Source: Longimicrobiales bacterium (lineage in GTDB: Bacteria > Gemmatimonadota > Gemmatimonadetes > Longimicrobiales > Gaopeijiaceae). From it: a DNA stretch of 64,000 nucleotides. Shown here in pieces: positions 14,014-39,064 of the stretch. A program made the translations under genes and the position numbers. The stretch spans positions 320,001-384,000 of the forward strand of contig CBDCNQ010000002.1 of assembly GCA_965219445.1 (NCBI GenBank). The letters run 5' to 3'. A model generated the notes under the pieces. The model made no database searches. It saw only the letters and a program-made list of their open reading frames with translations, and was not told where the DNA came from. The stretch's first letter is position 1; each line of letters begins with the position of its first letter.

Positions 14014-14774
14014 GCCGGGCGGAGCGGGGGCGGATGATCGAGCGGGACGGACCGCTGAGTCTTTCGAGGCAGTGCGCGCTGCTGGGCGTGAGCCGGTCGT
14101 CGCAGTACTACCGGCCGAAGGGGGAGAGCGCCGAGGACCTGGCGCTCATGCGGCGCATGGACGGGCTCCACACGGCGTATCCGTTCTACGGGAGCCGGCA
14201 GCTGATGCGGCATCTGCGCCGCGAGGGCGTTGCCGCGGGCCGGCACCGGATCCGGCGGCTCATGCGCCTGATGGGGATGGAGGCGACCTACCGGCGGCCG
14301 CGCACGAGCGTGGCGAGTCCGGAGCACCGGGTCTTCCCCTATCTGCTGCGGGGCCTCACGATCTCGCGGGCGGACCACGTGTGGTGCGCGGACATCACCT
14401 ATGTCCCGGTGACGCAAGGGTTTTTCTACCTGGTGGCTGTGATGGACTGGGCGACCCGGCACGTGCTCGCCTGGCGGCTGTCGAACACGATGGACGCGTC
14501 GTTCTGCGTCCAGGCGCTGGACGACGCGCTGGGCTGGAGGGCTCCGGAGATCCTCAATACGGATCAGGGCTCCCAGTTCACCAGCGAGGCGTTCGCCGAC
14601 CGGGTGCTGGGTGCGGGCGTGCGCTTCTCGATGGACGGCCGGGGCCGCTTCCTCGACAACATCTTCATCGAGCGGCTGTGGCGGTCGCTGAAGTACGAGG
14701 CGGTGTACCTCTACGAGCTCCGGGACGGGCCCGACGCCCAACGCATCATCGGCTCGTGGATCGACTTCTACAAC
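14010..14774 (+). pseudogene. IS3 transposase OrfB, 5' part (split at DFYN)
   Basis: WCADITY, NTDQGSQF, DNIFIERLWRSLKYE DDE motifs; continues at 39065. Confidence 0.92.
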
Positions 14775-14956
14775 AAGTACAGCAGTATGATCGCGAACAT
14801 CGTCCCATGCGGTCCCATAGTATTCCGTAAAGCGTTTGATTACAATGTGATACGGCATATCAGAGCCGTGTTCACAGGCTCCCTCTTGTGCCGGGTCGTA
14901 CCGTATTGTACCATTGTGTATCCGTCGATATGTGATACACAGGTAGGATACACCAC

Positions 14957-16153
14957 ATGCGTAAACGACCCCTTACGGCCGCCTTCGTGGCGCGAGTGAA
15001 GACGCCGGGACGCTACGGCGACGGCGGGCTCGGCGGGCTCGGCCTGTACCTCCGCGTCCACCGAATGAAGTCCGGGCGCGTCTCCAAGTCCTGGGGCCAG
15101 CGCATTCGAGTGGGAGGGAAGCCGACCAATCTCGGACTGGGCTCGTACCCGGTCGTGACGCTCAGGGAGGCGAGAGAGAAGGCGCTGGAGAACAGGCGGG
15201 CAGTCCATTGGGGCCACGACCCGAGAGACGCGGGGGTTCCCACCTTCGAGGCGGCCGTCGAGAAGGTGATGGCGATCCACTCGCCGACCTGGAAGAACCC
15301 ATCCCGCATGGCCGGGCAGTGGCGGCAGACGCTGCGGGACTACGCCCATCCGCGCATCGGCCGGAAACGTGTGAGCGAGGTCGCGACGGCCGACGTGCTC
15401 GCCATCCTCAAGCCCATCTGGTCGAGCAAGCCCGCGACCGCGAGGGCCGTGCACCAGCGGATCGGCGCAGTGATGAAGTGGACCGTCGCGAAGGGCTACC
15501 GGCCGGATAACCCGGCGGGGGACGCCATCGCCGCCGCGCTGCCGCGTAACGGCAACGCCATCCGGCATCACAAGGCGCTCCCGCACGGCGAGGTGGCGGC
15601 GGCTCTGGCCAAGGTCCGCGACTCGGAGTCCCATGCCGGTGTCCGGCTGGCGCTCGAGTTCATGGTCCTGACCGCGACACGCTCGAACGAGGTCCGGGGC
15701 GCGGCGTGCGACGAGGTCGAGCTCGATGTCTGGACCATTCCCGCCGACCGCATGAAGGCGAAGCGCGAGCACCGGGTTCCCCTGTCGGGGCGGGCCTTGG
15801 AGATCCTCGAGGAAGCCCGGAAGCTCCACGGCGGCGGCGAGATCGTGTTCCGGGGCGCGAAGGGAGGAAGGATCCACGCCTCGATGTTCAGCAAGTCGCT
15901 CCGGCGTCTCGGCATCGCAGGAACGCCCCACGGGATGAGGTCCTCGTTCCACGACTGGTGCTCGGAGACGGGCGTGGCGCGCGAGGTGGCGGAGGCGGCG
16001 CTCGCACACAAGGTCCGCAGTCAGGCCGAGGCCGCCTACGCCCGCTCGGACCTGCTGGACCGCAGGCGCGAGGTCATGCAGGCTTGGGCCGGATACTTGG
16101 CTGGCGAGACTCTAGAACCGGAGGCCCCGCCGATGCAAAGATCTCTCCGCTAA
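14957..16153 (+). CDS. P4/IntS-like tyrosine integrase with N-terminal arm-binding domain
   Basis: GRYGDGG..GLYLRV, LGLGSYPVVTL arm domain; TATR, HRVPL, HGMRSSF, LAH, AAY catalytic motifs. Confidence 0.93.
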   Translation: MRKRPLTAAFVARVKTPGRYGDGGLGGLGLYLRVHRMKSGRVSKSWGQRIRVGGKPTNLGLGSYPVVTLREAREKALENRRAVHWGHDPRDAGVPTFEAAVEKVMAIHSPTWKNPSRMAGQWRQTLRDYAHPRIGRKRVSEVATADVLAILKPIWSSKPATARAVHQRIGAVMKWTVAKGYRPDNPAGDAIAAALPRNGNAIRHHKALPHGEVAAALAKVRDSESHAGVRLALEFMVLTATRSNEVRGAACDEVELDVWTIPADRMKAKREHRVPLSGRALEILEEARKLHGGGEIVFRGAKGGRIHASMFSKSLRRLGIAGTPHGMRSSFHDWCSETGVAREVAEAALAHKVRSQAEAAYARSDLLDRRREVMQAWAGYLAGETLEPEAPPMQRSLR

Positions 16154-16870
16154 CTCTTCCCCCACCTTCATCTAAGGCGCGAGTCTCAGTGCGTCGCGGC
16201 TGACGAGTTCTCCATGCCTCGACGACCAGAATGATGCCTTATCTCAGTAGACTCGTGCGACTCCAGGATAGCCTCTCTCCCCCCACTCGGCGAAAGTCAG
16301 CCCCTGAGGGTCCCACACGATACGGGGAAACTCCTTCTCCAGTCGACACGCTAACTCGGCCGCCTCGGGCACGACGAGCACGACCCTGGGACGCTCGTGG
16401 ACGGATAGCTCCTCGAGAAGATCCTTGTAGGAGCTGCCATCACTCGGGCTAAAGGAGTAACCGATGCTTATTACGATCGGATGTGATCGCAGCAATTCCA
16501 GCGCCTTCGACCGCACTCCCATCAGGAACTCCTCCCGGAGACCTTCGGCCTTCGCCGGGACGGGGGCGATGACACGTTCGGTTAGGTCTGGATTGTATCC
16601 CAAGCCACCCTCGGCGCGTATGTACGGAGAAAACAAGTCTCGCAGAGAGTGAGAATCGAACATGAACTTCGGACGGTCATACCACTTCATCAATGGGATG
16701 CCCTGCTCTGCCGCAGACTCAAAGGCATCATAGGGGCATGGCGACCGCTACCGGTACCGATCAGCAGCGAAGCAGCCCGAAGACGAAGAGGCGTTCTCCT
16801 CCGGGAACGGGTGCGCGTTCATCATTGTTCGCGCAAGGAAGCAACCCACCTATCCAAGAGGAGAACGCCG

Positions 16871-17926
16871 ATGGAGAGATATATCGGACTCGACGCACAC
16901 GCGTCGAGCTGCACGCTGGGGATCGTAGGACCCAGCGGCAAGCGCTTGGGCTCGCAGGTGGTGGAGACGAACGCGCGGGCGCTGATCGAGGTGCTGCGAG
17001 GGATTCCGAGGAACCGGCACTTGTGCCTGGAAGAAGGGACGCTGTCGGGGTGGCTGTACGAGGTGCTGGAGCCGCACGTGGAGGAGCTAACGGTGGCGGG
17101 GGTCGGCAAGAGCCGGGGCCCGAAGACCGACAAGCTGGACGCGTTTGCCCTGGCGGAGAAGCTGCGGATCGGATCACTGGAGACGAGGGTCTACAAGAAC
17201 CGGGGCCAGTTCAGGCGGCTGGGGGAACGGGCGAAGAGCTACGACTTCCTGGTCGGCGACACGGTGCGGGTGAAGAACCGGCTCAAGAGCGTGCTGCGCT
17301 CGAGAGGAGTGGCCTACGGCGCGGGGCGCTCGGTCTACTTAAAGCGCGACCGGGAGGAGTGGTTGGCCAAGCTGCCGGAAGCGAGCAGGACGACGGCCGG
17401 GTTGCTGTACGAGGAGCACGACGCACTCGTGGCATTGAGGGCGAAGGCCGAGAAGGCCTTGCTGGCGGAAGCACGCAAGCATCGAGAGTGGCATGTGCTG
17501 AAGACGTGCCCGGGTCTGGGTCCGATCCGGACGGCGGAGCTCCTGCCGGTGGTGGTGACGCCGTACCGGTTCCAGAGCCGGAGCAGGTTCTGGGCGTACT
17601 GCGGACTGGGCGTCGTGATGCGGAGCTCGTCGGACTGGGTGCGGGGTCCGGGTGGGCGGTGGGTAAGGGAACCGGTACAGCAGACGCGGGGGCTGAATCG
17701 GAACTTCAACCACACGCTGAAGCGTGTGTTCAAGGGCGCGGCGACGACGGTGATCGGTCGGGCCGAAAACGAACCCTTGTACCGCCACTACGAGCGACTC
17801 CTGGAGGGGGGCACGAAGCCGAATCTGGCGAAGCTGACGATCGCGCGTCAGCTCGCCTCGATCGTGCTAGCGGTGTGGCGCACGGGCGAAGCGTACGACC
17901 CCAAGAGACTGGAAGCGACGGAGTAA
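16871..17926 (+). CDS. IS110 family transposase/recombinase
   Basis: YIGLDAH, EEG, KTDKLDA (DEDD RuvC-like); CPGLG, YCGL..RSS C-terminal domain; GAGGAG RBS. Confidence 0.94.
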   Translation: MERYIGLDAHASSCTLGIVGPSGKRLGSQVVETNARALIEVLRGIPRNRHLCLEEGTLSGWLYEVLEPHVEELTVAGVGKSRGPKTDKLDAFALAEKLRIGSLETRVYKNRGQFRRLGERAKSYDFLVGDTVRVKNRLKSVLRSRGVAYGAGRSVYLKRDREEWLAKLPEASRTTAGLLYEEHDALVALRAKAEKALLAEARKHREWHVLKTCPGLGPIRTAELLPVVVTPYRFQSRSRFWAYCGLGVVMRSSSDWVRGPGGRWVREPVQQTRGLNRNFNHTLKRVFKGAATTVIGRAENEPLYRHYERLLEGGTKPNLAKLTIARQLASIVLAVWRTGEAYDPKRLEATE

Positions 17927-17969
17927 ACCGGGCCGGGATCGGCGAGCGTGGGGTCGAAAGCGGTCACAA

Positions 17970-18140
17970 CATGGGGTCCGACGAAACGGAAGCGAACCGG
18001 TTACAGGGGACAGCATCCATACACACCGTGGGCCGGGGCAGAGAGCCCAAGCCCCCACTCAAAGGCTATGCACCCCTGGAGAGCCGAACGAAGCGATGGG
18101 CCACAGAGTCCCAGATAGAAGGATGGTTCCCGCTCCAGAG
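17970..18140 (+). ncRNA. Putative bridge RNA/seekRNA of IS110 copy 1 (ends approximate)
   Basis: Two stem/internal-loop/hairpin units; loop segments TACACACC and TCAAAGG match the target sites, ATAGAAGG matches the element end. Confidence 0.75.
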
Positions 18141-18880
18141 CGGAGAACGCGACGGCTGTGAACGTCTTCCGGACTGCGATGCGGACCCTGCGAGCGCACC
18201 CCTCCCCACCCTGAGTCGTCGACCGGGCAATCCAAACCATGCGGACGCCGACGGTCAAAAAATGAGCCGACGGCGCGTGGGGAAGGTGCGTCTTGACCGC
18301 CAGCCCCATAGAAGGTGTGACGCAGCGTGTACACGAGAAGGCTCCCGTGAAGGTGAAGGACAAGGTTCCGAGAGTCCTGAACGTCGTCCGTCTCGGCAGT
18401 GGGTCCTCGCCCTACTTTGACGGGGACACCGTATCCGTCGAGCGGAGACCAACGCCCAGCGCGGAGCAGCCCGTATTCCAAGAAGGAATCGTAGTTGAAC
18501 GACAGGTATGAGCTCTCAGGGAAGTCATCGATCATACGGCAGTACGGGTTGCCGTGATGATTAGGATCCAGCAGCCGTCGAGCGAGGTAGTAGTCCGCCT
18601 GCATGAGTGTATCGCACAAGCGTTTGATTGGCGCCGAGTCGCGAGAGCCCAGGGCATCGGCGAGCCGATTCTCCACTTGGTCTGGAGACACGGCCTCGGA
18701 AGAGTCGGGGAAGCAGATGCTTGGGAGGTCGCCGACCAGCGGATAGCGGCAGTCGATTTCGTACTCTCCGATATAGATCGACTCGACACGGATCGAGCCG
18801 GCTAGGCGCCGCGCATCCGCGCCGAACCCGGCTCCGACTAGAAAGAGGGGTGGTGGTTCGCTCGGCGACGTAGTCGTTTC

Positions 18881-19480
18881 TTAGCAGTCCTGGTAGTTTG
18901 CTTCCATGCAGGCGCGAGCCAGGTCCGTCGCCCGGCTGATCTCCACTGGGGTCATATCACGTTCGAGGCGGTCCCGCACTTCTCCAGCTGAGTCGTGCCC
19001 ATTGGCGCTGGCGATATTGTACCACATGTGCGCGAGTGTTAGGTCCTTGAGGACGCCCAAGCCGGAGTCGTAAGCCGCCCCGAGCGCAGCCTGTGCATCG
19101 GTGTTGCCTTTTTCGGCAGCTAGGCGGTACAAGCGTAACGCTTCGGGCAAATACTTGAGGGCGCCTTCGCCCAAGGTATAGGCCTTTCCGAGGGCGGCCT
19201 GTGCGGCGGCGTTGCCCTGCTCTGCGGCCATGTGGAACCAGCGTACCGCTTCCGCACGATCCTCAGGGGCACCCTCGCCCAACCAGTAGGCGACCCCGAG
19301 ATTGTACTGTGCGTCGGCGTGGCCCTGTTCGGCGGCTTGGAGCCACCAGCGTACCGTCTCGGCACGGTCCTGGGCGACGCCTTCTCCACTCCTGTAGGCC
19401 CACCCGAGGCGGTACTGCGAACCGGCGTGGCCCTGTTCGGCGCCCATCCGGAACCAGCGCGCCGCCTCGGCATCGTCCTG
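18881..19480 (-). pseudogene. Sel1-repeat protein, 5'-truncated
   Basis: Four to five Sel1 repeats and typical AHMWYNIASANG end; the 5' end runs into integrase/mobC debris. Confidence 0.8.
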
Positions 19481-19485: not shown

Positions 19486-19643
19486 CCGCACGGCTTCCAC
19501 TCGAGCTTTCGCGACTGGGCGGTGCAGGAGACGAGGCTGCGAGCGGCACGGCGGCGGCCGCGGTCTTGGGCCTTGGCCCACCAGTCGGCGAGTTCGGCCG
19601 GCGATACACGGGTGGCGGCTGTGACGGTGCGGTGATCGGCCAT
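19486..19643. pseudogene. Integrase fragment (+) joined to a mobC 5' fragment (-)
   Basis: PHGFHSSFRDWAVQE on +; MADHRTVTAATRVSPAELADWWAKA on -. Confidence 0.6.
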
Positions 19644-19719
19644 CAGGACGCGCCGCCGAGGGGGGAAGGGGCGCGAGCCCCGCCCGCGAACTCCGCCGGA
19701 GCGCGGGTGTCGGGGGGAT

Positions 19720-19796
19720 CGAAGGGGGGCGGAGCCATCCCTCGCCAGCCCCTGCCGGGGACCCGCGAAGCGTGGCCCCAAAGGGTAGGCTGGCTC
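19720..19796 (+). other. Putative oriT copy 1
   Basis: GCCAG-hairpin-GGCTGGCTC, 57/58 identical to 26850-26907, divergent from the mobC fragment. Confidence 0.65.
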
Positions 19797-21537: not shown

Positions 21538-24180
21538 TTAGTCGATCAAGACCGCTTCTTCGACCAACCGGCGCTGCTCGCGTTTGTGACTTCCCGGCGA
21601 TCCTGTCGCCGGACTGGCCGACTCTGGGCGGCAGACGACGCGTGAGAACGATCCGGGAAACCGCATTTGGAGGTGCGTCCAAGCGCCCATGTTCCTCGGC
21701 TCCTCCTGCGCCCACCAGACTTCCGCGTCGCCGAACGGCGCCAAGGCATCATTGATCGTTTCGAGGCTGAGGGGATAGAGTTGCTCGAAGCGGATGATGG
21801 CCAAGTCCTGTCGCTCGGCCTCGTCCCGAGCTGCCCTTAGGTCGTAGTAGAGCTTGCCGCTACAGGCCAACACGCGCCTAACCCCGCTCGGCTCGACCTG
21901 CGGATCGCCCAGAATCCTTTGAAAGCGCCCTTCCGACAGCTCGTCTAGGCCGGACAAAACCTGACGATGACGCAACAGACTCTTTGGTGACATCACAATC
22001 AGCGGCTTGCGCCACGGACGAACCATCTGGCGGCGTAAGAGGTGGAAGTATTGCGCCGGTGTGGTTGGATTGACGATTTGGATGTTGTCCTCGGCCGCCA
22101 GTTGCAGGAACCGTTCAAGCTTAGCGCTCGAATGCTCCGGGCCCTGGCCCTCGAATCCATGGGGTAGCAGCATTACCAATCCGCTCCACAAGGTCCACTT
22201 GTCCTCACCGCTGGAAATGAATTGGTCGATGATCACCTGGGCGGCATTGACGAAGTCCCCGAACTGCGCCTCCCAAATGATCAGGCCGTCCGGGAATTCT
22301 AGGCTGTATCCGTATTCGAAGCCCAGCGGGCCGGCTTCCGAGAGCGGGCTATTGTGAATCTCGAACGTACCCTGGCGTGGGGAGAGGTGCTGGAGCGAAA
22401 CGTACGGGAATCCCGTTTCGGCATCGCGCACTACAGCGTGCCTGTGGGCGAACGTGCCGCGCTCGCAGTCCTGGCCCGTCACACGCACGCGAAACCCTTC
22501 GAGCAGCAGGCTTCCAAGCGCCAGCGCCTCAGCACCCGCCCAGTTGACCGGTCGCTTGCCGTCGGCCATTTCGGTGCGCTGCCCGAGCAAGCGGACGATA
22601 CGTCGATTGGGAACGATCTCCTCCGGCGTCTTGCCTAACTTCTGCAAGATTGCCCTGAGGCGATCCGCGGGCACGCCGGTATCGACTTCGGGAACTTGTG
22701 TGTCCGCGCCGAGGTTATAGCCTGACCAATCGCCCGTCACCTGATCGCCGACGTAGATGTAGTCCTTGCTTCTCGCCGAAGCCAATTCCTTCTCAAGGTG
22801 TTCGCGCCGCTCGATCGTGATCCGCTCAGCTTGCTCCTCGGCAATTCCGCCTTGGCGCAGGAGGTGGTGCAGGTAGGCTTCTCGAACCGGTTTGCGCCGC
22901 TCGATGGCCTGATACAGCAGCGGCTGCGTGAAGCGGGGATCGTCAAGCTCGTTATGGCCGCGCCTCCGGTAGCCGTACATATCGATCACGACGTCGCGCT
23001 GATACTCGTTTCGAAAGTCGACCGCAAGTCGGACAACCTGGGCCGTTGCTTCAGGGTCTTCTCCGTTCACGTGCAGGATGGGCACCTGCAGCATCTTCGC
23101 TATGCCACTGGCGTAGATTGCTGAGCGCGCTTGCCACTGGGTCGTCGTGAATCCGATTTGGTTGTTGATGATTATGTGAACCGTGCCGCCGACAGAGTAG
23201 CCCGACAACTGGCTCATGTTGAGTGTTTCCTGCACGACGCCTTCTCCTGCGAAGGCGGCGTCGCCGTGGAGCAGAATGCACAGGCCATGCCTTCGCTCAG
23301 TGTCACCTTTCCGGTCCTGCCGGGCTCGCAGGCGGCCGACGGCGACGGGATTGACGAATTCGAGGTGGCTCGGATTAAAACACAGGGAAAGCCGGAGGCC
23401 CCCGCCTTGGGAGCTCGTCCATCTCGTCTGGTAGCCGAGATGGTATTTCACGTCCCCCCGCCCTTCGTAATGCACGTGATCCGCATCGGCGAATTCACGG
23501 AAAATTTCCTGGGCGTTCTTACCGATGACGTTGGTGAGGACGCTGAGGCGGCCGCGGTGCGCCATGCCCATAACGATATCGTTGACTCCCTGCCGGCAAG
23601 CTCGTTCGAACAGCAAGTCGAGTAGCGGGATCAAGGTCTCGCAGCCTTCCAGCGAAAAGCTTTTTGAGCCGAGGAATCTCTTTTGGATGAATTCCTCAAA
23701 GATGGTGGCGTCGGTCAGCTTGGTCAGGATTCGCAACTTGCGTGCTAATGAGAGGTTGACACGATTGCCGACGGGTTCCATCCGCTGCTGGAGCCACTCG
23801 CGTACTTCCACGTCGTCGATGTGCATGAATTGCACGCCGATCGAACGCGTGTAGGTCTCACGGAGCCGTTCGATGACTTCGCGAGGGGTGTCCAGCCCGC
23901 AGCCCGAGAGCGTCTTCGGCGAGATCTTCCTGTCCATGTCTTGCGAACGGAGGCCGTAGTAGTCCGGATCCAATTCGGGGCTCATGCCGGGGGCGATCTC
24001 CAACGGATCAATGCGGGCGTCCCTATGGCCCTGGACCCGGTAGGCCCTGACGAAGTTGTCGAGGCGGTGCTGGAGGTCCACGTCGACGGCGAACTCTTCT
24101 CTTGGATGCTGCTGGTCAGTTGCTTCGTTCACGGGCCCTTCGATAGATACGCCACCCAGTCCGGCACTCCGACCTGACAA
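21538..24180 (-). CDS. sucA: 2-oxoglutarate dehydrogenase E1 component
   Basis: GMAHRGRL, GDVKYHLG, HGDAAFAGEG, WEAQFGDF, GQGPEHSSA motifs; start uncertain, N-terminus short. Confidence 0.93.
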   Translation of the reverse strand: MSGRSAGLGGVSIEGPVNEATDQQHPREEFAVDVDLQHRLDNFVRAYRVQGHRDARIDPLEIAPGMSPELDPDYYGLRSQDMDRKISPKTLSGCGLDTPREVIERLRETYTRSIGVQFMHIDDVEVREWLQQRMEPVGNRVNLSLARKLRILTKLTDATIFEEFIQKRFLGSKSFSLEGCETLIPLLDLLFERACRQGVNDIVMGMAHRGRLSVLTNVIGKNAQEIFREFADADHVHYEGRGDVKYHLGYQTRWTSSQGGGLRLSLCFNPSHLEFVNPVAVGRLRARQDRKGDTERRHGLCILLHGDAAFAGEGVVQETLNMSQLSGYSVGGTVHIIINNQIGFTTTQWQARSAIYASGIAKMLQVPILHVNGEDPEATAQVVRLAVDFRNEYQRDVVIDMYGYRRRGHNELDDPRFTQPLLYQAIERRKPVREAYLHHLLRQGGIAEEQAERITIERREHLEKELASARSKDYIYVGDQVTGDWSGYNLGADTQVPEVDTGVPADRLRAILQKLGKTPEEIVPNRRIVRLLGQRTEMADGKRPVNWAGAEALALGSLLLEGFRVRVTGQDCERGTFAHRHAVVRDAETGFPYVSLQHLSPRQGTFEIHNSPLSEAGPLGFEYGYSLEFPDGLIIWEAQFGDFVNAAQVIIDQFISSGEDKWTLWSGLVMLLPHGFEGQGPEHSSAKLERFLQLAAEDNIQIVNPTTPAQYFHLLRRQMVRPWRKPLIVMSPKSLLRHRQVLSGLDELSEGRFQRILGDPQVEPSGVRRVLACSGKLYYDLRAARDEAERQDLAIIRFEQLYPLSLETINDALAPFGDAEVWWAQEEPRNMGAWTHLQMRFPGSFSRVVCRPESASPATGSPGSHKREQRRLVEEAVLID

Positions 24181-25543: not shown

Positions 25544-26720
25544 TCATCGGAACCGCGCCCGCGCGAGCCGGGCCGACTGCCATGTGGCGGTGCGGTGGAT
25601 CAGCCCCCGGCCTGCCTGCCTGCGATCCCGCTCCTTCAGCGCGATCATTCGCCTGAGTCCGCCCTGGATATCGCCGCAAACCTCCTTGAGCAACCGGACA
25701 TCCCCCTGACGAATGGCGTGCTCGATCCGGGCGATCTCGAGGCTGACCTCCATGTCGAATTCGGATGGGCGTGGGTCTCGAGCCCAGTTATCGAGCGTCG
25801 TCCCGGCCCGGTTCAACTCCTCCCAGGTCCGGGCGACAGCGACGACTTCGATCCTGCGCCCGCGTTCCCTGATCGCCTTCCAGAGCTCGCGGTGCGCCGC
25901 ACCCCAGGAGCGGAGTGCCGTCGCGGTCTCGTAGCCCGGATCGACGTACACGAACACGGCACGCTCGGCGTCCAGCGCGACCGGCAGTTTGAGCGGGAAG
26001 TGGCGCCGGGTGTTCCCGGCCGCTCCCCGATAGACTCGCCGGGGCAGGAGTCGGCGTTCGATGCCGAGCGCCTCGAACGCCCGAACCTTCTCCGGCTCGG
26101 TCGGTAGCCACGGCAAGTCGGGATGCTCGAGCACATAGTCGAGCGAGAGGAGGCGCCGCATCAGCACTTCCGTAGAGGCGATCCGGCGGTGGCGGATGTC
26201 CTCGGCGCCGAGCGCCCGGTAGATCCCGCGCCCGAAGATCCGGCACACGCGGCCGATGCCGCTGATGCCGCTCACGTTCTCTTCGACAGCCACGCCCTGC
26301 GCGATGAGGGCATGGACGGCGCGCCGCACCTTCTCGGTGTGACAACCCAGGAACCTCGTCCACTGCGCCCGGGTGAAGACGCCACTGTGGAGGCAGGCCA
26401 GGGCCGGGTTCTCGCCCGTGCTCTGCACCGCCGCGATGTTGGCCCACATGTGGGCGAGCAGAAGGTCCCTCGGCACGCCCGAGCCGGTGAAGTATGCTGT
26501 CGCCAGGAACGCTTGCGCCCCAACATCGCCCTTCCTGGCGCACTCATGATTCCCGGCAATATCATCCGGACCGGCGCGGCAAAAATCCTGCCCCGAGACC
26601 TCGGAAGCGGGGGCCAGGATCAGGGCGGCGAGAACCGCTAACGGCGACACCCTGTGGAGGCTCACGGCTTCGCCGCTCGCTTCTGACACCCGGAGCCCTT
26701 GGGAGAAACTTTTCAACATC
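25544..26720 (-). CDS. Chimeric ORF: Sel1-protein N-terminus fused to a putative plasmid/IME replication-type protein
   Basis: Hydrophobic leader + AQAFLATAYFTGSGVPRDLLLAHMWAN, then ACLHSGVFTRAQW...RHFPLKLPV, which recurs as a fragment at ~35150-35330; lies next to oriT/mobC. Confidence 0.6.
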
Positions 26721-26849
26721 CTACACACCTTCCACGGCGAGCCCTCTAACGGGGGTATTATCTGTGTTGGCTTCGTTTCACACTTTGAGAATGCCATAGC
26801 AGCTTCGACGGCGTCCGCACCCGGAGTCTGGTACGCCGTTACGTAGTGA

Positions 26850-26947: not shown

Positions 26948-27210
26948 GTGGGCGCTGGACGCGACGTGTGGGTGAAGATCCGCGCCAGCGAGGCGGAGCG
27001 TGCCGAGTGGCACGCCAAGGCCCGCTCCGCAGGGTTAACGCTGTCGGATCTGGTGCGCCGGTCGGTTGGCCGGGTGCGCACCTGGACCGTGGCGCACGCC
27101 GAGGTCGAGCGCGAGCGCACCCGGCAGGTCGCGCGCATCGGCAACAACCTCAACCAGATCGCCCGCTGGGCCAACACCTATGCCTCAGCAGCCGAAGCCG
27201 TCGCCCACCT
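26948..27210 (+). pseudogene. mobC: MobC relaxosome accessory protein, 3'-truncated
   Basis: KIRASEAERAEW.AKA..AGLTLSDLVR RHH and RIGNNLNQIARWAN. Confidence 0.85.
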
Positions 27211-27539
27211 GGTCCCCGTCGGGCGCCCCGCCCCTCGAAACACCACGGGATCCCGTGCACACTGTGTCATCATGGGAATCGCTCCACGAATCAGGGTAAG
27301 TCACTGCCAATACTACCCTTGACCCATGTAGACGTCCCATCACACGCAGCCCTGGTGAGCGATCCGGGCTAGCCTCCTCGCCAATCTACTTTCCAGGGAA
27401 ATCGGGTGCGGTAAAGGGGTGACGATGGAGGAGCCTGGCGTGAGCATGATCGTCGGGGTTCGCCTCGCCGAGGCTTTCGAGGCCGCGGGGGGTCTGAAAA
27501 GGGGTCGCCAGCGAGACGCGTCCGGTTCTCGGACGCGCG

Positions 27540-29582
27540 TCAGCGTGCCGGAAAGCCGGATCGGCGAGCGGCGAATGCCTCCAGGGCCCGTACATGCGCG
27601 AGGGCGATCCGTCTCTGGACAGCCGGATCTCGGAGGGCGGCTTCCTGCTCCGGGATCATCATGAAGAGCGCCTCAGAGAGGATGGAGGGCATCCAGCTCG
27701 GACGCACGACGGCAAGGTCCGCCCTTTCGATCCCGAGGTCTCTCGTTCCAAGCTCCTCCAGCAATTCCTGCTGGAGGAGTCGAGCGAGTTCCGCCGATGG
27801 AGGGTGGAAGTAGTAAACGCTTGTCCCGTGGTTCGCTCGGGGATCAACGCCGTCGGGGAACGCGTTGTTGTGAACGGACACGAGTAGGTCCCCGCCTGCA
27901 TCGACCGCGATCCGGGGTCGATCGGCGAGCTCGACCGTCTCGTCTCCGGTCCTCGTCAGGATCACGTCGGCGCCCCTCTCCTCCAGGAAGTCCCTCAGGG
28001 CGAGGGAGACCGCGAGATTCGCGTCCGCCTCGGCGAGCCCGGTCGGCCCTCGCGTGGCGCGGTAGGCGCCCCCGTGTCCCGGATCCACGACCACGCGGAG
28101 GCCTCGCAGCGGCGCAGACGGATCGATCCCGGGAGGTCGGCGGATCCGGAGCACCACGGCTCCCGACGCATCGAAGAACGCCTCGTAGCCCCACACGGGC
28201 GCGTTCAGCCGCACGCTCACGCGGTAGACCTGGTCAGACGGCTGGCTCCACTCCGCCCGTTCGACGAGAGGGTCCATCTGCCCGTACTGGAAGAAGTTCG
28301 TGCGGCTGACAGCCCCGAAGACCTCCAGGTGGAGAACGCGCTCTTCGGCCACGACCTGAAAGGGGAGGCGCTCGGGCAGGGGGATTCGGACGTCGATGTG
28401 CCCGGGCTCCGGATAGAGGCGGACGTCCCCGACGAAGGCGCTGGGAGGAGGGGTCCCCTCCGCGAGCAGGTGGACCTCGCACGCAGGCACCCACGCGGAG
28501 CGGTTTGGCGCCAGGCCGACCCGCAGCATTCCGTCGCGTTCACCGGTGATCTTGAGAACCGTCCCCTCGGGCCAGAAAAAGTGGTAGGGTCCGGCGACAT
28601 CGTTCCGACCCCGAACCCGCCACTCCGAGGGCGCGTCCGGAGGCGGAAAGGCGGCGGCCACCCGAGGGCGCTCGGGCGAGAGGATGGCCAGGTTTAGGCG
28701 GAGAGGGGTCCTGACCGTGTCCGCTCCCAGGATCAGCTCGAAGCGGGCTCCCTCGGCCTCGGGAGGGAGCCCGCCCACGGTGGGCCGCGGAACCTCCGCG
28801 TCTGCCGCCACCACGGCCCGCGCGGGGAGCACCCCCTCGTAGCGGACCGTCGCCCTCTGCGGAGCGGGCCGGGCCTCCGGGCGCTGGGCGACCAGCGCCC
28901 CGCCGGTGTCCGCGGCTACATCGAGCGCTCCCGCCTCGACCAGGCGGATGCGGTCGCCCCCCGAAAAGACCAGCCAAGCATCACCCCCCGGGGTGCCCCG
29001 GAAGCCGACCTCGATCGGCTCCCCGGGCCCCGCCGCGGAGGATCCGGAAGGGTAGCCGGACCCCGCCATGATCGCGAGACCCTCCAGAGGCGGGGACGGG
29101 GAAGGGGGGAGGCGGACCGTGCGCTCGAGCGTCGCGGTCACGCCGTCCCGTTCGGCGACGAGCCGGTAAACTCCGTCCGGGGGAACCGGCAGGAAGGCAA
29201 GGAATCCCCCGTTGGAAGCGACCTCCACAGGTGCCCCGTTGACGGTCAGCCGGGCCCTTCCGGAACCCGTCGAGCCGAAGAGGAAGTTTCGGTCGCGCAC
29301 GGCGAGGGCGGCGCCCTCCGCCGGGTAGCCGACCTCGAGGCTCACATCGCCGTCCGCGAAGGGGATCGGCGGAAGCGAGGGGACGCGCTCCGCCCCCGCC
29401 GTGCCCGGCACCGGGAACGGGGGCATTCTCCCGGCTCCTCCTCCCATGGCCTCCGGCATCGCTGCCGTACAGGCCGGGAGGGCGACGGCCCCGAGGCAGG
29501 CGCACGCAAGGGCGAGGCGGGAGAACCGCCGGGGAGCGGGGCCCTTCGGGCCGGTTCGAGCCATTCGCCTCGCGTCATGCAT
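27540..29582 (-). CDS. N-acetylmuramoyl-L-alanine amidase (Amidase_3), lipoprotein
   Basis: VVVDPGHGG, EADANL, VSVHNNA, SILSE motifs; lipobox LPAC. Confidence 0.9.
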   Translation of the reverse strand: MHDARRMARTGPKGPAPRRFSRLALACACLGAVALPACTAAMPEAMGGGAGRMPPFPVPGTAGAERVPSLPPIPFADGDVSLEVGYPAEGAALAVRDRNFLFGSTGSGRARLTVNGAPVEVASNGGFLAFLPVPPDGVYRLVAERDGVTATLERTVRLPPSPSPPLEGLAIMAGSGYPSGSSAAGPGEPIEVGFRGTPGGDAWLVFSGGDRIRLVEAGALDVAADTGGALVAQRPEARPAPQRATVRYEGVLPARAVVAADAEVPRPTVGGLPPEAEGARFELILGADTVRTPLRLNLAILSPERPRVAAAFPPPDAPSEWRVRGRNDVAGPYHFFWPEGTVLKITGERDGMLRVGLAPNRSAWVPACEVHLLAEGTPPPSAFVGDVRLYPEPGHIDVRIPLPERLPFQVVAEERVLHLEVFGAVSRTNFFQYGQMDPLVERAEWSQPSDQVYRVSVRLNAPVWGYEAFFDASGAVVLRIRRPPGIDPSAPLRGLRVVVDPGHGGAYRATRGPTGLAEADANLAVSLALRDFLEERGADVILTRTGDETVELADRPRIAVDAGGDLLVSVHNNAFPDGVDPRANHGTSVYYFHPPSAELARLLQQELLEELGTRDLGIERADLAVVRPSWMPSILSEALFMMIPEQEAALRDPAVQRRIALAHVRALEAFAARRSGFPAR

Positions 29583-29609: not shown

Positions 29610-30637
29610 TGACCTGCCCCCAAGAGCGGTACCACATCCTATGTTAGTCCCAGCACCTGTGGAGGGCCGTGAAGGACGGGCATCCTCAGGAACCAGGGCG
29701 ACGGCTTAATCGCCTCAGGGGCCGGGGGAAAGCCGCCGCAGGCGCTGTAGGGTCGGACGGTATTGTACTCGCGCCTCCATTGCTCGACCAGCACGGCCGC
29801 CTCCGCCAACGAGTAGAAGATCTCCCCGTTCAACAGCTCGTCCCTGAGCTTGCCGTTGAAGCTCTCGTTGTAGCCGTTCTCCCACGGGCTGCCCGGCTCG
29901 ATAAAGAGCGTCTCGACGCCCACGCGCCCCAACCACCGCCGCACGAGCTTCGCGGTGAACTCCGGTCCGTTGTCCGACCTCAGATACTCGGGAGGCCCGT
30001 GTCGGACGAACAGATCGGCCAGCACCTCGAGCGAGCGGATCTTGCGAGCCACCACGATCGCCAGGCACTCCCTCGTGTGCTCGTCCAGCACTGTCAGCAG
30101 CTTCAGCGCACGCCCGTCGTGCGTCCTCGAGGCCACGAAATCGGACGAACAGACGTGGCCCCGATACAGCGGCCTCAGCCGGATGCACGATCCGTCGTTG
30201 AGCCACAGCCGACCTCGCTTCGGCTGCCGCTGCGGCACCTTCAGCCCCTCCTGCCTCCAGATCCGCTCCACCCGCTTGTGGTTCACCCCCCAGCCCTCGA
30301 TGCGGAGCATGTCCGTGACGCGTCGGTAGCCGTAGCGGCCGAATCGACTCGCGAGTCGCACGATATCACCCCGGAGCGCCCCCTCGTCACTCGCCACTTT
30401 CCTCGCCCGGCGCTGCGTCGTGCGTGGCTGCCCGAGCACCCGGCACGCTCTCCTCTCCGACGCCCCGAGCTGCTTCACGGATTTGCCGCGGGCCAGACCG
30501 ACCTCTGCCTCCCGCAGTGCAGTGATGATCTGCTCCGGAGTGGGTCGCTTCCTTCCCATCCTGACCTCCTCGCTGAAAAACTTCAGACCAGGTCGATCCT
30601 AACATTGCACCTGGTTTCGTTTCAGGGGGTCAGGTCA
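29610..30637 (-). mobile_element. IS3-family (IS407-like) element with an internal deletion
   Basis: IRs TGACCTGCCCCC / TGACCTGACCCCC; ORF 29639-30559 has orfA start fused to orfB (SDNGPEF, PGSPWENGYNESFN). Confidence 0.88.
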
Positions 30638-33399: not shown

Positions 33400-34187
33400 C
33401 TAGAGGTCGATATCGACGCCGATCGGGCAGTGGTCGGAGCCCCGTTCGTCAGGCCAGATGAAGGCATCGTGGGTTCGCTTCATCGCGGTCGGTGACACGA
33501 GAACGTAGTCGATCCGCCATCCCACGTTCCGCTCACGGCGCCGCCCCATTGCCGCCACCAGGTGTAATGGCCGGGCTCGTCAGGATGCAGGGCGCGAAAG
33601 GTGTCCACCCAGCCCGCTCCGAGCCAGCGGTCTAGCTCGGCCCGCTCCTCGGGGAGGAACCCGCTGTTCTTGACATTGGATTTCGGGCGAGCGAGGTCGA
33701 TCTCGCGGTGGGCGGTATTGTAATCTCCGATCACGAGCACCGGGTACCGGCACCGTAACTGCTGTACCCGGCCGAATACCGCTCGATAGAAGTCGAGCTT
33801 GTAGCTGACCCGACTGTTGTCCCGGTCCTTTCCGCTTCCCTTGGGGAAATAGCCGTTGACAACTGCGAACCGCCCGCGGCCGGTCCGGAAGTGGGCAGCG
33901 ATGAACCGACCCTCGACGTCGAACCGTGGTTCTCCAAGGGCGGTCTCCACCCGCTCGGGCTCAAGCTTCGAGTAGATGCCGACACCACTGTATCCCCGAC
34001 GCTCGGCTACCGCGAACGTCGCGTGCCAGTTGGGCGGTGTGCGCGCGGCCAGAGGGATCTCCTCGGGCAGTGCGCGGACCTCCTGAATGCCGACGATGTC
34101 GGCTTCGGACCGGTCCAAGAAGTCCACGAATCCGCGCCGCACACAAGCGCGAATCCCGTTTACGTTCCAGCTCACGACCCGTATCAA
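33400..34187 (-). pseudogene. xth: Exodeoxyribonuclease III (Xth), frameshifted near the 3' end
   Basis: SWNVNGIRA, IQE, GYSGV, GDYNTAH, DTFR, YTWW; the terminal GWRIDY motif lies in another frame. Confidence 0.85.
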
Positions 34188-34194
34188 ATCTCAC

Positions 34195-34372
34195 CTCCGC
34201 CACGGTGGAGGCCAGGGCGCCCTTTCCCGCCTCCGGTGGAAATCCGGTGCTCGACTTCATCGCCTACGACGATCCGACACTCCACGCCGTGATCCGCGTC
34301 TGGTACTACGCGGCGCCCGCCGTCGCGGTGCGCCTCGCCGGCAGCTTGGCCCTCTCGGCCTTGAGAGTCTGA
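34195..34372 (+). pseudogene. Short gene fragment, possibly from a conjugation/coupling gene of the mobile element
   Basis: PFPASGGNPVLDFIAYDDPTLHAVIRVWYYAAPAV; assignment from context and recollection only. Confidence 0.3.
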
Positions 34373-34459
34373 CTCCGGCCGCGGGTGTTGCGGGCGCGAC
34401 CGATCTCAGTCTTACCACGCCGTGCGTCCCACAGGCCGGCACGACACCAATCCGCGCCA

Positions 34460-34999
34460 TCATCCCGGCTTGGCCGAACGGCTACGCGAGGTTCCGATCG
34501 TCCCGACAATGGCCCCCGCGATCCTGCCGTATTCCTGCTCTCCCAGCGACACCATTTGCCCCTCGACCGTTACAGCAGTGCGGACCGAGTTGGCGATGAA
34601 GCACTCTTCATGCGCGATCTCGTGGAGCTTCGCGAACGCTTCTGGAGACGGTGCCGGGGAGCCGAGGGAGACCTCGGGGCGGAGCACCACACGAGCGACC
34701 GTCATCTTGCCATCCGCGTTTCTTCCCATGAAGCCTGTGGCCGCATCCCGGTACCGGTCCACGACCAGCCCCTTTCGAACGGCGATCGCCAGGAAGGTGA
34801 GCATGTGGCAGCTCGCGAGAGATGCGACATACGCTTCCTCGGGATCTACGAAATCCGGGTTCCCGAGGTAGCCGGGAGCCGCGGACGCGCTGACTTGAAC
34901 CCCGCCCTCGAACGTCCACGTGTGATCGCAGGGGTAGGACGAGTACCTGAATTCGCCGTGGCCCCTCTCCCATTCGATTGTGGCGCGATGCTCCGACAT
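34460..34999 (-). CDS. OsmC/Ohr family protein
   Basis: VDPEEAYVASLASCHMLTFL, AHEECFIANSV. Confidence 0.9.
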   Translation of the reverse strand: MSEHRATIEWERGHGEFRYSSYPCDHTWTFEGGVQVSASAAPGYLGNPDFVDPEEAYVASLASCHMLTFLAIAVRKGLVVDRYRDAATGFMGRNADGKMTVARVVLRPEVSLGSPAPSPEAFAKLHEIAHEECFIANSVRTAVTVEGQMVSLGEQEYGRIAGAIVGTIGTSRSRSAKPG

Positions 35000-35475
35000 G
35001 TCTCGACCCCCCCTTGCCGGTCTCCCCGGCGTTCTTGGCCGGCCTCCGATCCGACGGTTATGTCGCTGTACAGCAGGTCTTTAGCGGCACGGAACGCCGC
35101 GGACAACCCGCGTAAGTTCGGTTCTTGGCATCAATAAGGCCCCAAACGCGAATCGCGGGGCGCCGTCGTGGTCTCATGGTCTGGATCGACGTAGACAAAG
35201 ACGGCGCGGCCGGTGTCCACAGCGACTGGCAACTTAGGTAGGAAGCCGCGCCGGGTGTTCCCGCGGCTCTGCGGTAGAGCCGTGAGGGCAGGAGCCCGCG
35301 CTCGATGCCGAGTTCTTCAAGAGCGACGTGGGGCTTCACATTATGGATTCCGCATCTCAATTCCCAAAGGGTGATCAATAAGGTGATCTTAGCATCGGAT
35401 ACGCACGATAACTATGAGTGCACACATGACTTAGGTCAGATACGATAGCGGACTGGACCTCCGCCCGCGCGTAGT

Positions 35476-36334
35476 CCAGCACCGTCCGACGTGGGGTGCC
35501 AAGCACGCTGGCCAGTGGGAGGCGACGCTGCGGACGTATGCGTATCCGAAGATCGGGGAGAAGCGGGTGGACTGGATCACCACGGCCGATATCATGGGAG
35601 TGCTGCTTCCGATCTGGAACGGGAAGTACCACACGGCCAAGCGGCTGCGGCAGCGGATCGCGACGGTGATGAAGTGGGCGATTGCGCAGGGCTACCGGCT
35701 GGACAACCCGGCGGGCGAGGCAATCGGGGCCGCGTTGCCCAAGCCCTCCCGCATCCAGAAGCACTACACGGCGCTGCCCTATGGGGAGGTGGCCGGGGCA
35801 ATCGACGCGGTGCGGCGATCCGAGGCGACGGTTTCGGTGAAGCTGGGCCTTGAGTTGATGATACTGACGGCCTGCCGGTCCGGGGAGGTGCGAGGGGCTC
35901 GGTGGGAGGAGATCGACCTGGAGGGCGGGGAGTGGACGATTCCGCCGGAGCGGATGAAGAACCGGAGGGAGCACCGGGTGCCGTTGTCGGCGCGGGCGCG
36001 GGAGGTTCTGGCCGAGGCCCGGGAGCACGCGCCCCGTTCGGAGTGGGTGTTCCCGTCTCCGAGGGGGCTACAGCTGAAGGACTTCGATTTCAGCGGTCTG
36101 TTCAAGGCGCTGGGGATCGCGGCCGTGCCGCACGGCTTCCGTTCGAGCTTCCGGGACTGGGCGGCCGAGCGCACGGACGCGCCGCATGCCGTCATGGAGG
36201 CGGCGCTGGCGTACGTGGTCTGCAACAAGGTGAAGGCGGCCTACGCCCGCTCGGACCTGTTCGAGCGCCGACGCGTCCTGATGGACGATTGGGCGGAGTA
36301 TCTGGCGGGGCGGAGAGCAAGCACCGAGGCCTAA
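35476..36334 (+). pseudogene. Tyrosine integrase lacking the N-terminal arm domain
   Basis: TACRSGEVRG, HRVPLS, HGFRSSFRDWAAE, AAYARSDL; paralog of 14957-16153. Confidence 0.88.
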
Positions 36335-36879
36335 CCTAATCCTCGTTGTGCCGCCGCTTCCGCGACGGGCTCAGAGGCCGTTTCCGGGCGTTCCACGGGC
36401 ATTTCGGGAAAGCTACGGGCCGTCGGATCGCCGCTGACGCGCGATCGCGGGTCGCCGAGGGGTACGGGTAGGGCGGAATGCGGCCACGGCAGAGAGCACC
36501 GCCGTCACCAAGGAGCGCCTGGTCACCCGTCGCCCTCGTCCTCCGTGACGCTGGTGAACAGTAGGCCGAGGAGCTTGTCCGCGACGGACCGGGGGCTGGT
36601 GAGCGGCAGCCGGATGTCGTACGCGGCCTCCAGGGCCTCCCGGAGATCCTGCACGCGCCAGAAGACCGGGGTGGGCTCCCCGCCGACCATCGTAATCGTC
36701 ACCCTCATCGTCACCGCCCTCACCCTCTGTCCTCAGAGCCGCCGGCTGATGAACGACGGGACGGCCGACTTGGCCGGTGAGCGTTGCGCCCGGACCCCGG
36801 TCCCAGCCGCTAATTGCGAGCCGTCGAGGCCCGATCCGATGGGCGGGCCAAGAGGGACTCCGCCCCTTCGATCCCCTAG

Positions 36880-37239
36880 GGAGGCCCGCGCTCCGCTGCG
36901 GCGTGCGTGTTCGCCCAGCGGCGGTCTGGTTCCGATCGTTGCCGATCGCGCGCGGCTTGGCGGCTCCGCTCGCGCCCAATGCCCGTGCCGGACGCGGTCC
37001 ACGTTCGCGTCCGCGCCACCGACTGCCACCGCAACCTCGTAGGCGGCGTGCTCCGCCGGGCGTTGACACGGGCGGTGAACATGACGGTGCGGCGGTCCGC
37101 GGGGGGCGCACCGGCGACGGGTTCGGGGGACGCCCCGCCCGCCCGCTGCGTCGGCAGCCGCGCGCAACGCTGGGGGTTCGAAGGGGGGCGCAGCATCTCC
37201 TTGCCAGACCGCAATGTTCAACATTGCGTGGGCTGGCTC
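36880..37239. other. Degenerate mobC (-) with putative oriT copy 3 (37170-37239)
   Basis: ARxIGNDRNQT..WANTH remnant; GCCAG-CGCAATGT TCA ACATTGCG-GGCTGGCTC. Confidence 0.6.
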
Positions 37240-37454
37240 ATGGCCCTTAGTCTCCGCCCAAGGTGCCGTGACGGCGACCGGAAACCCTCTGAGCTGCCGG
37301 TGATTGAGTAGCGCTTCGGCGGATGCGAACTACTTCACTGGGCGTATCAACGTGGAGAAGACAGGCGCATCGGCGGTGGCCAGCAGATTTCACGTCCACG
37401 ATGACGTCATGCCTATAGGGGAACTATGGGGGCAGATGGAGAGGCCTGTGAAAA

Positions 37455-38678
37455 TCAACCCGTCCCAGCGCCGGTGAAGGCTCCAGCGAGGGCATCTGCA
37501 ATTTCGTCAAATTCCTTGTCCATAAAGCTTTGAAACTCGCTTTCAACCCTGCTCTCGATATCTTCTATCGGTTGCCTTTCCAGTGTATGCCGATCGACCA
37601 TGTTTCTAGAATAGATCTGCGTGAACTTGCTAGTGAGCTTATCGCTGCCGCCCTGAAACAATCTTCGGTTCTTGCGGCTGAAGTCCAGAATGTCACGCCG
37701 TGGGCTATCTTCCTCGGTCGGTCCGATGACGATCGTCATCCTGATGAAGGTGGTCGTGTTCTTGATCTCGAAGAGGAGACTGTGTCCGGTCTGCGTCCAC
37801 TCATTTTCGGGAGTCGCGTTGAACGCCGGGATGCCTTCCCAAGCCTTGGGAAAGAACCTGATGTAGGATTTCGTCGGATGCACGACTTTGATCCGGCTGT
37901 CGTCCGAAGCGAGCTTCGCAGCCAACTCGCTGATCTCAAGCAGACGGTCAGGTCTATGTTCGAATATGAAATCGAGAGCAGCTCTGTGTTTTCGGTATAC
38001 AGCCCTCGCAATATTCGCGAGATCATTGTCGGTCACGATGTTTCTCCGCAGCATGCGAGCATAGTGATCCAAGGACATGGAGACGGCGTCGCTGAGGCGC
38101 TCTCTGTGCTTTCTGGTGAGGATCTCGACAACTGAGAGAACGTCGCTGTAGCCAACCGGTGTCCAGTTTTCGTCGGACGCCTCGTCTTTCTCGGGAGTCA
38201 GGTAGGCGAGGACGCGGTGGAATTCCCGATACTGCTCCTCCAGAAATGAGCGATATCGTTTCAGCTGGTCCGAATGTTCCTTGGACCCGACCTTATTCTC
38301 GACTGCTAACAGGAATCGGTGTGCCTCATCGATGCAAAGCACGTCGATCCGGTGGTACTCTCGTAGCACCAGGCAGCCCTCGAAGTCCACGAGGGTGATC
38401 TCACTGAGGGATAGCGGTCGAGATTCGGGCCGCATCGACTTAACAATCTCGACGACGAATCGGGTGAGGAATTCCGTGCCGAGACCATGCGTTTCATTCG
38501 GATCGAGAAGAAAGGCGAGAAAATGGGAATGCCGCTCTTCAGAGCGCGTGTGCCCTATCGCTTCGAAGATATTAAAGCCGCCCAGGTGCACCGCGATTTT
38601 GTCGATCCCGCCATCATCGAGCAGCAGTGCTTCGATCGCCGAAGCGATATTCTGCTGTCGAATATCCACCATAGTCAA
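37455..38678 (-). CDS. PD-(D/E)XK nuclease family protein (PDDEXK_4-like)
   Basis: FNIFEAIG..RSEERHSHFLAFLLDP..HGLG, RIDV, VENKV...E.SDQL.RY, YLTP. Confidence 0.85.
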   Translation of the reverse strand: MTMVDIRQQNIASAIEALLLDDGGIDKIAVHLGGFNIFEAIGHTRSEERHSHFLAFLLDPNETHGLGTEFLTRFVVEIVKSMRPESRPLSLSEITLVDFEGCLVLREYHRIDVLCIDEAHRFLLAVENKVGSKEHSDQLKRYRSFLEEQYREFHRVLAYLTPEKDEASDENWTPVGYSDVLSVVEILTRKHRERLSDAVSMSLDHYARMLRRNIVTDNDLANIARAVYRKHRAALDFIFEHRPDRLLEISELAAKLASDDSRIKVVHPTKSYIRFFPKAWEGIPAFNATPENEWTQTGHSLLFEIKNTTTFIRMTIVIGPTEEDSPRRDILDFSRKNRRLFQGGSDKLTSKFTQIYSRNMVDRHTLERQPIEDIESRVESEFQSFMDKEFDEIADALAGAFTGAGTG

Positions 38679-39064
38679 CCAAGTCCACTTGCTGGCATTT
38701 GCGGATGAGAGATCACCCGAGTAGGACTACGAGTACGGCAACAGCTGAAGGATCGTACCTGTGTTCATCGCCAGTTCTCACAAGATCGCTGAAGGTGCTG
38801 GACCTAGACAAGAGGCGATTGCTCTTTGCGAGTCGCTGGCGGGCAGACCTAGAGAGATCTCCTCTCGTTCACCCGCGGGGTGAGCCTCGATCCGGGTGTT
38901 CTCGTGGCTGGCTTGATCGTCGGGGCTGGACAGGCCTGTCCTAAACCCAGCGGGTAACACGATTTACGATCTTCGCACACACCCAGTGATACACGTCTCC
39001 CGCAAGGTACTGCCAAGTCGTTGTCCCATAGGAACTTGCGAAGAGTGATCCCTGCTTCTACAAC

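Follow-up and report, generated by a model that had tools for sequence, protein, structure and literature searches.

The window analysed here is a stretch of 64,000 nucleotides from a Longimicrobiales bacterium (G000:C2:320001-384000, G000 being the genome that contains it), and the subject of this work is a 24.3-kb island within it that carries an intact P4-like tyrosine integrase. The island interrupts the orfB gene of an insertion sequence (IS) of the IS3 family, which itself interrupts a PAS histidine kinase gene whose homologs are uninterrupted at the same point. A 10-bp duplication, CTTCTACAAC, is present at 14765-14774 and 39055-39064, and joining 14774 to 39065 reopens orfB as a frame of 279 aa (...IDFYN-EARPHSSLGGRTP...), the left part of which matches the NCBIfam model transpos_IS3 (NF033516) with 236 bits against a cut-off of 160. 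Three intact copies of the same IS3 (99.6-99.9% identity) are found in G000, and compared to one of them, at G000:C5:650604, the two halves show 0/1114 and 0/328 differences. The split is thus precise and not a product of chance, and the match to a local copy indicates that the island arrived after a local transposition of its host IS.

The integrase begins with an ATG 182 bases inside attL and contains three integrase domains, namely Arm-DNA-bind_3 (PF13356), Phage_int_M (PF22022) and Phage_integrase (PF00589). The residues R242, K267, H325, R328, H351 and Y361, the expected catalytic ones of the family, are all in place. The best-fitting named model, NF007246, is matched with 115 bits, below its cut-off of 434, so the integrase is left without a named subfamily. 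An earlier interpretation made from the letters of the window (the sequence-only reading) had described the core duplication, two pairs of motifs inside the ends, the in-frame rejoining of orfB and a complete P4-like integrase near the left end, and all of these were recovered here.

Element ends and targets among relatives

An alignment of the seven left and seven right ends in G000 shows that the element starts with AAGT (14775) and finishes with GCTT (39057), the left boundary being the same in these seven left ends and in all 29 mapped below. The core can accordingly be re-read as ACTT-CTACAAC-AAGT at attL and GCTT-CTACAAC-GAAG at attR, i.e. as a 7-bp overlap between inverted arms. The junctions have the layout ACTT-N7-AAGT on the left and GCTT-N7 followed by host sequence on the right, where N7 depends on the site in G000: CTACAAC in the window, and CCCGCTC, CCCGGTA or CACGGCC elsewhere. 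A tyrosine-recombinase core that contains a 7-bp overlap is arranged in this way (PMC10111431), and cleavage would be expected at the overlap edges.

Inside the ends, GTGATACAC is found at 14932 and 38986 and GTCCCATAG at 14812 and 39023, each with exactly two occurrences in the window. Among the relatives, GTCCCAT occurs exactly at offset 27 or 37 in 23/29 left ends. With at most one mismatch, GTGATACAC occurs at offset 155-157 in 28/29 left ends and 71-72 bases 5' of the overlap in 43/43 right ends, its spacing to the overlap being constant within 2 bp. The suggestion that these motifs resemble arm-type sites is thus strengthened by their conservation, common orientation and fixed spacing, and the GTCCCAT and GATACAC motifs are candidates for such a role, or, in the case of GTCCCAT, for accessory sites. 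Some junctions are one base short in or beside the overlap (G000:C2:220589, G103:C1:475132 and 389280, G312:C6:621341, with G109:C4:1226480 and G003:C10:73372 as possible further cases), which is possibly a signature of imprecise joining.

To map the targets, 314 genomes of the bacterial family were searched with each end and the 25 positives were re-searched in full. This gave 75 junctions, 29 at left and 46 at right ends, from 26 genomes, and the census covers close relatives of the window's ends. Target classes were assigned by tblastn, apart from three VirD4 right ends, for which a peptide motif was used, and one Xer end that was placed manually. Thirty junctions fall in tg, as we call an unnamed gene with a winged helix that lies between VirB8 and the gene of the coupling protein, 28 in the adjacent VirD4-like coupling-protein gene and six in IS3 orfB. 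The remainder are at a recurrent site in an Xer gene (3), at other Xer-gene positions (3), in a methyltransferase gene (1) and elsewhere (4). That is, 58/75 lie in two neighbouring genes of a conjugation operon. Four exact sites account for 67/75, although there are 2202 C[GT]ACTTC sites in G000 alone. If events are counted as the larger of the left and right ends per genome and class, there are at least 55 (VirD4 21, tg 20, IS3 4), or 48 excluding G000, three of them in IS3.

None of the 75 junctions is at a tRNA gene, and the targets are interrupted internally rather than at restored gene ends. The 29 long P4-like integrase homologs in G000 (47-100% identity) also include none within 1 kb of a tRNA, and the departure from the usual P4 target seen by the sequence-only reading extends therefore to the relatives. 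Its proposal of IS3 as the dedicated attB of the family is not supported, considering the share of the two conjugation-operon genes and the fact that the closest sister of the window element sits in tg. The 22 more distant integrase homologs in G000 may belong to additional families directed at mobile genes. With the right-end pattern, no matches were obtained in metagenome or viral contigs, while the left-end pattern gave six in genome contigs, with no additional target class. An integrase scan of metagenomes yielded 80 loci of at most 57% identity, one with a tRNA and none with element ends or target genes, and they are hence uninformative about the target.

Three of the four recurrent sites (tg, VirD4-like and Xer) belong to one resident element resembling an integrative and conjugative element (ICE). 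In addition to tg, its operon contains VirB9, VirB10, VirB11, a VirB4-like fragment, ArdC and an Xer-like recombinase, and the insertions are at the codons F-P-[LVI]-K of tg and D-F-C-H of the VirD4-like gene. This ICE-like family is multicopy in G000 (C5:230000-250000, locus L164, and about 15 other loci). Ten of the 14 element ends in G000 are in tg, two in the Xer-like recombinase gene, and two are those of the window. Six of the tg ends, three left and three right, have no partner (C5:454974, 608018 and 648597; C4:1187672; C5:991455; C2:220589), which suggests genome rearrangement via att sites or IS copies. At G058 C1:740626-741913, one operon carries an element in tg that is immediately followed by another in VirD4, a case of tandem accretion.

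We now consider the IS3 site. Mapping the flanks of close homologs, as the sequence-only reading had proposed, reveals repeated junctions in IS3 orfB at TTCTACAA(C/T), at the same codons in four genomes from three genera. Besides G000, these are G312 (a left and a right end on two contigs, with the same 3-base flank AAC on both sides), G109 (a right end, in an IS of 96% identity) and G237 (a right end, in a divergent IS3). The exact IS3-type attR pattern occurs in these four of the 401 genomes sampled from the order; one-mismatch matches in G137, G164, G143 and G339 were excluded, as they are not element ends. The IS alleles nearest to the G312 halves are those of G103 and not that of the window, from which they differ at 3 and 6 positions. 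Since loci, IS alleles, cargo and element ends differ, the four insertions are apparently independent. Grouping the four IS3 right ends as one clade is rejected (p-AU 0.04 in the approximately unbiased test; 115 columns, 41/46 right ends), and each of the four is nearest to a tg element.

In each of G000, G312 and G237, one of four matching IS3 sites is occupied. There are 13 matching sites in G056, and G103 contains no fewer than 25 full left halves of the IS3, with all 18 of the aligned copies uninterrupted; the eight element ends of these two genomes are all in tg or VirD4. IS3 orfB is thus a real and recurrent but secondary site of a parasite of conjugation genes. With four genomes, it is not the one-off secondary site that had been named as a possible refutation. 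As a side observation, this IS3 shows about 99.5% identity across genera (G000 vs G103), has multiplied in G103 to at least 25 copies, and appears at high depth in public contig sets.

Target choice and its alternatives

On the basis of these results, we consider it probable that the island represents an integrative mobilizable element (IME) that parasitises conjugation genes, with an integrase that accepts loose core arms, a target set by the overlap, and IS3 used as a look-alike of VirD4. The element family is found in the window's bacterial family, and its host would be the resident multicopy ICE-like element. The integrase would recognise a core made up of C[GT]ACTT, the 7-bp overlap and an AAG-like arm, and would insert mainly into tg and the adjacent VirD4-like gene, the attP overlap selecting the target with some mismatches tolerated. 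Because the D-F-Y-N codons of IS3 resemble the VirD4 site, copies of the VirD4 type would land there repeatedly. Such mismatched integration would be rare, and repair, or excision followed by re-integration, would then fix the IS3 overlap at both ends; integration with mismatches and subsequent fixation of the overlap has been proposed for lambdoid phages at secondary sites. The window copy, with CTACAAC, could leave by precise excision with orfB restored, and its best matches would be the three intact IS3 copies; transfer between cells would make use of the ICE mating apparatus in trans. Mobilisation in trans has precedents in the IMEs in traG (PMC5704250) and in islands with only an origin of transfer (oriT) (bioRxiv 2026.01.13.699239), and the mv4 integrase uses degenerate cores and recombines any overlap provided that attP and attB match (bioRxiv 2023.11.06.565760).

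The resemblance between the two sites can be seen from their sequences, CG-ACTT-CTGCCAC-(C/G)A(G/C)GTGCG for VirD4 (codons D-F-C-H-x-V-R) and CG-ACTT-CTACAAC-GAAGC(A/G)CG for IS3 (D-F-Y-N-E-A-R), which agree at 5/7 overlap bases and at 16-17/21 bases overall. Among the 2202 C[GT]ACTTC sites in G000, 25 score at least 16 against the VirD4 consensus. At secondary sites, 8/10 overlaps are within two mismatches of CTGCCAC or CCCGCTC, as compared to 10.9% of genomic CTT-C sites (binomial P 7e-7, a descriptive value, as the consensus and the main overlaps were defined post hoc and kin are non-independent). The same 7-mer is present at both ends in 11/13 paired elements, the two discordant pairs having one lost base and one substitution, respectively. 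Within a target class, the variation of the 7-mer corresponds to synonymous or conservative codon changes, and the overlaps in G000 equal those of the intact target copies where compared (IS3 and tg). The 15 matches to CTTCTACAAC in G000 include no other CG-ACTT-CTACAAC sites than those of the three intact IS3 copies.

In a tree of left end plus integrase (28/29 rows), the window's element belongs to a supported seven-member clade (98/96) in which three insertions are in VirD4, two in IS3, one in tg and one in a methyltransferase gene, and the whole tree requires seven changes of target class, the minimum being four. The left end of the closest sister, in tg, shows 0/182 differences to that of the window, while its right end differs, which suggests end swapping between resident copies.

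A number of points, in addition to the descriptive character of the overlap comparison, weigh against this interpretation. In a wider, 29-base VirD4 profile the IS3 site has only a moderate rank, 552 of the 9.1 million positions reaching its score, and resemblance alone leaves the four IS3 insertions unexplained, given that the other look-alikes are single cases; target copy number or tolerated insertion must add to the use of the IS3 site. The overlap of the closest sister, CCCGGTA, shares 1/7 bases with CTACAAC, and none of the six VirD4-like sites found in G000 is occupied. The element ends look mosaic, which makes trees a weak guide, the direction from VirD4 to IS3 is unproven, and overlaps at single unpaired ends could be donor-derived. 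Finally, excision, circle formation and transfer are predicted steps.

A circle with CTACAAC would best match intact IS3 copies, and this keeps a narrowed version of the IS3-homing idea alive. According to it, the integrase has been retargeted in nature by the overlap in its attP and the CTACAAC copies home to IS3 as a portable landing pad across genera, with the transposase switched off by insertion and restored upon excision; we regard this as rather unlikely. A stronger form, in which a sub-lineage that has gained CTACAAC in attP hops from IS3 to IS3 across genera with the IS as its normal attB, draws on the shared codons in three genera and the equal occupancy of one in four sites. In its favour are also the 97% identity of the G000 and G312 integrases, which group with one tg element (82/85), and the presence of three of the four IS3 right ends within one unresolved 9-row clade. 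We find it unlikely, since the single clade is rejected (albeit with only 115 columns), every IS3 right end has a tg element as its nearest neighbour, G056 and G103 have no IS3 ends at all, and outside G000 IS3 accounts for 3/48 events. It could also be imagined that the first overlap base suffices, as for IntDOT and Tn916, and that the host copies the seven bases of the target to both ends, i.e. a target-site duplication. Position 1 of the overlap is indeed C in 72/75 junctions, IntDOT accepts heterology at 5/7 overlap bases (PMC2817482), one clade of near-identical elements bears six different overlaps, and several junctions (in G000, G103 and G312) lack one base at the overlap. Such overlap-blind integration is nevertheless quite improbable: the secondary-site overlaps stay near the main ones, most junctions are on four exact sites out of so many candidates, and the donor overlap expected at one end after heterologous exchange and replication is not seen, the four recurrent sites showing only one single-base mismatch and one-base losses.

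The sequence-only reading had further envisaged a 25.7-kb unit of IS3 plus island that an intact IS3 could move, in which case the other genomes would hold descendants of a composite transposon. Both IS3 ends do flank the island, and the three intact copies could provide the transposase. IS3-family elements move via a circular form in which the two ends are joined and both take part in insertion (PMC3299598, PMC3219604), with ends of the form TG...CA (PMC4433286), and the left inverted repeat (IR) in the window starts with CA (13656-13662) and lacks the terminal TG, an extra TG being found after the right-hand GGG (39380-39392). The IS halves in the window match the local copy while those of G312 are nearer to G103, only the integrase and short or multicopy pieces are shared over the 20 kb that follow the left end in G312, the G237 IS3 is divergent, and no second locus with the same unit was found. 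With loci, IS alleles and element ends that differ among the four IS3 insertions, the proposal is very improbable. The kinase homologs suggest a pre-insertion reading ...Q-G-R-E-I. A misassembly of the IS3 repeat with the island, finally, is extremely improbable. IS3 and the element ends are repeats, and among the four public contig sets placed on 13400-16600, which are short contigs, none bridges the junction; one public contig, possibly from the source sample, equals 13400-13690 on the IS3's left side with 0 differences. The breakpoints, on the other hand, are exactly at the element boundaries known from unrelated targets, the IS rejoins without differences, and the same type of junction is present in three other assemblies.

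Relation to known systems

The IMEs of Tn5252-family ICEs are serine-integrase elements. They insert in conserved ICE genes, e.g. traG (VirD4), and like the present family they are mobilizable, use fixed sites in the conjugation genes of their helper, with disruption and possible restoration of the target, and have more than one site (PMC5704250). The review places them in Firmicutes and discusses them beside serine-integrase IMEs, whereas here the integrase is of the P4-like tyrosine type, the host belongs to Gemmatimonadota, and near-identical integrases use both main sites as well as IS3 orfB. The HE-PICIs (PMC10111431) have a tyrosine integrase clade related to P4 and the phage-inducible chromosomal islands (PICIs) whose insertions recur in the genes of a different mobile element, a doubled co-oriented motif on both sides of attP, and off-target insertions by near-identical elements. 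As described there, they insert into late genes of prophages, and most of their site groups form single integrase clades. In the present family, a conjugative element acts as the helper, a search of the ORFs gave no phage genes, and elements only 2-4% apart are spread over several target classes. Identity with HE-PICIs was rejected, the targets being conjugation, IS3 and recombinase genes and the island giving no primase, AlpA or capsid match.

The mv4 integrase (bioRxiv 2023.11.06.565760) also has degenerate arms around a 7-bp overlap and a target set by attP identity. It is of a different integrase family, with a tRNA-Ser site, and was retargeted in vitro, while in the present case natural retargeting seems to have occurred. 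IntDOT and Tn916 (PMC2817482, PMC12229494) share the variable overlap with a conserved first base, but they tolerate broad heterology, resolved by replication, whereas here the ends nearly always match and off-targets stay near the main overlaps.

Elements inside helper genes (HE-PICIs, IMEs in traG) and secondary sites are thus already known. In the open literature (subscription papers being outside its scope), we found neither an account of a tyrosine-integrase family that inserts into the conjugation genes of Gemmatimonadota nor a description of IS3 orfB as a recurrent attB, in agreement with the earlier remark that an integrase with this target was not known. The family adds a Gram-negative case with a tyrosine integrase to the parasites of conjugation genes, with an insertion sequence as recurrent attB. 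It provides a natural series in which nearly the same integrase is found at four recurrent sites with different overlaps. Changes of integrase target are usually deduced by comparing distant relatives or imposed in vitro; in this series one enzyme comes with four short substrates, and a loose-armed integrase with a changeable overlap could serve as a tool.

Other features of the island and of the host element

The features of the locus are collected in Table 1. The island has its own integrase and lacks a full conjugation system, as in the definition of an IME: no type IV secretion system genes were found among the island ORFs (open reading frames) scanned, and no relaxase in the window's island, where a mobC/NikA gene and oriT-like remnants are present. 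A sister element in G195 encodes a relaxase and mobC, and the candidate oriT remnant is 76% identical to that element over 215 bp; the mobC and oriT-like copies of the window may be nested relics. No matches to primase, AlpA or capsid were obtained in the island. The truncated tg copy has its own insertion site, near 26000, unoccupied. The IS110-family element is multicopy in the genome (blastn copies of about 1600 bp, 98-99%), and no E2 gene was seen among the neighbouring ORFs scanned beside the 2-oxoglutarate dehydrogenase E1 gene.

Table 1. Positions of features in and around the island, numbered from the first letter of the window.
Positions	Strand	Feature	Basis or remarks
12804..13658	+	PAS histidine kinase, 5' part	PAS_4, HisKA
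13659..13684	+	IS3 left IR	starts CA; intact copies: TG
13726..14013	+	IS3 orfA	HTH_Tnp_1
14010..14774	+	IS3 orfB, 5' part, up to ...IDFYN	rve, rve_3, HTH_21; NF033516
14764..14778	+	attL core	host arm ACTT 14764-67, overlap CTACAAC 14768-74, element arm AAGT 14775-78
14802..14820	+	Tandem GTCCCAT motifs, left end	candidate arm-type or accessory sites
14932..14954	+	Doubled GATACAC motif, left end	candidate arm-type sites
14957..16153	+	P4-like tyrosine integrase, intact, 398 aa	Pfam
16719..18319	+	IS110-family element, secondary cargo	DEDD_Tnp_IS110, Transposase_20
19542..19752	-	Candidate oriT-region remnant	resembles region upstream of sister element's mobC and relaxase
21538..24180	-	2-oxoglutarate dehydrogenase E1, cargo	NF006914, 1149 bits, cut-off 764
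25544..26797	-	Sel1 fragment fused to 5'-truncated tg copy	
26948..27322	+	NikA/MobC-type relaxosome accessory gene	NikA-like E 1.3e-13, MobC E 8.2e-11
27540..29582	-	N-acetylmuramoyl-L-alanine amidase, cargo	Amidase_3
29639..30559	-	Second IS3-family transposase, unrelated, multicopy, secondary cargo	rve, rve_3
35567..36334	+	Truncated P4-like integrase, nested relic	52% identity to main integrase
37455..38678	-	PD-(D/E)XK nuclease, cargo	PDDEXK_4
38975..38994	+	Doubled (G/C)ACAC...GTGATACAC motif, right end	same orientation as left-end motif
39054..39068	+	attR core	element arm GCTT, overlap CTACAAC 39058-64, host arm GAAG
39065..39382	+	IS3 3' part	orfB end (to 39139) and right IR (39357-39382)
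39388-39852		Histidine kinase, 3' part	HATPase_c

The tg gene belongs to a large unnamed family of over 3000 clusters (3017 matches among 8000 candidates scored). In the predicted model, a winged helix is apparent in the N-terminal part only (best Z 8.4, root-mean-square deviation 4.0, 80 residues aligned). Foldseek gave no match at E<=0.001, the C-terminal part being barely covered, and Pfam and NCBIfam gave weak HTH matches or none. The relaxase profile PF13814 (Replic_Relax) has no match in 62 tg homologs, and no canonical relaxase was detected among 21 ORFs scanned at the ICE-like locus. An Atlas lead at 0.84 links tg to a cluster with PF13814 in 41%, and a relaxase role of tg is only a lead. 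The runs that contain the stretch are, where a habitat is named, mostly sponge metagenomes.

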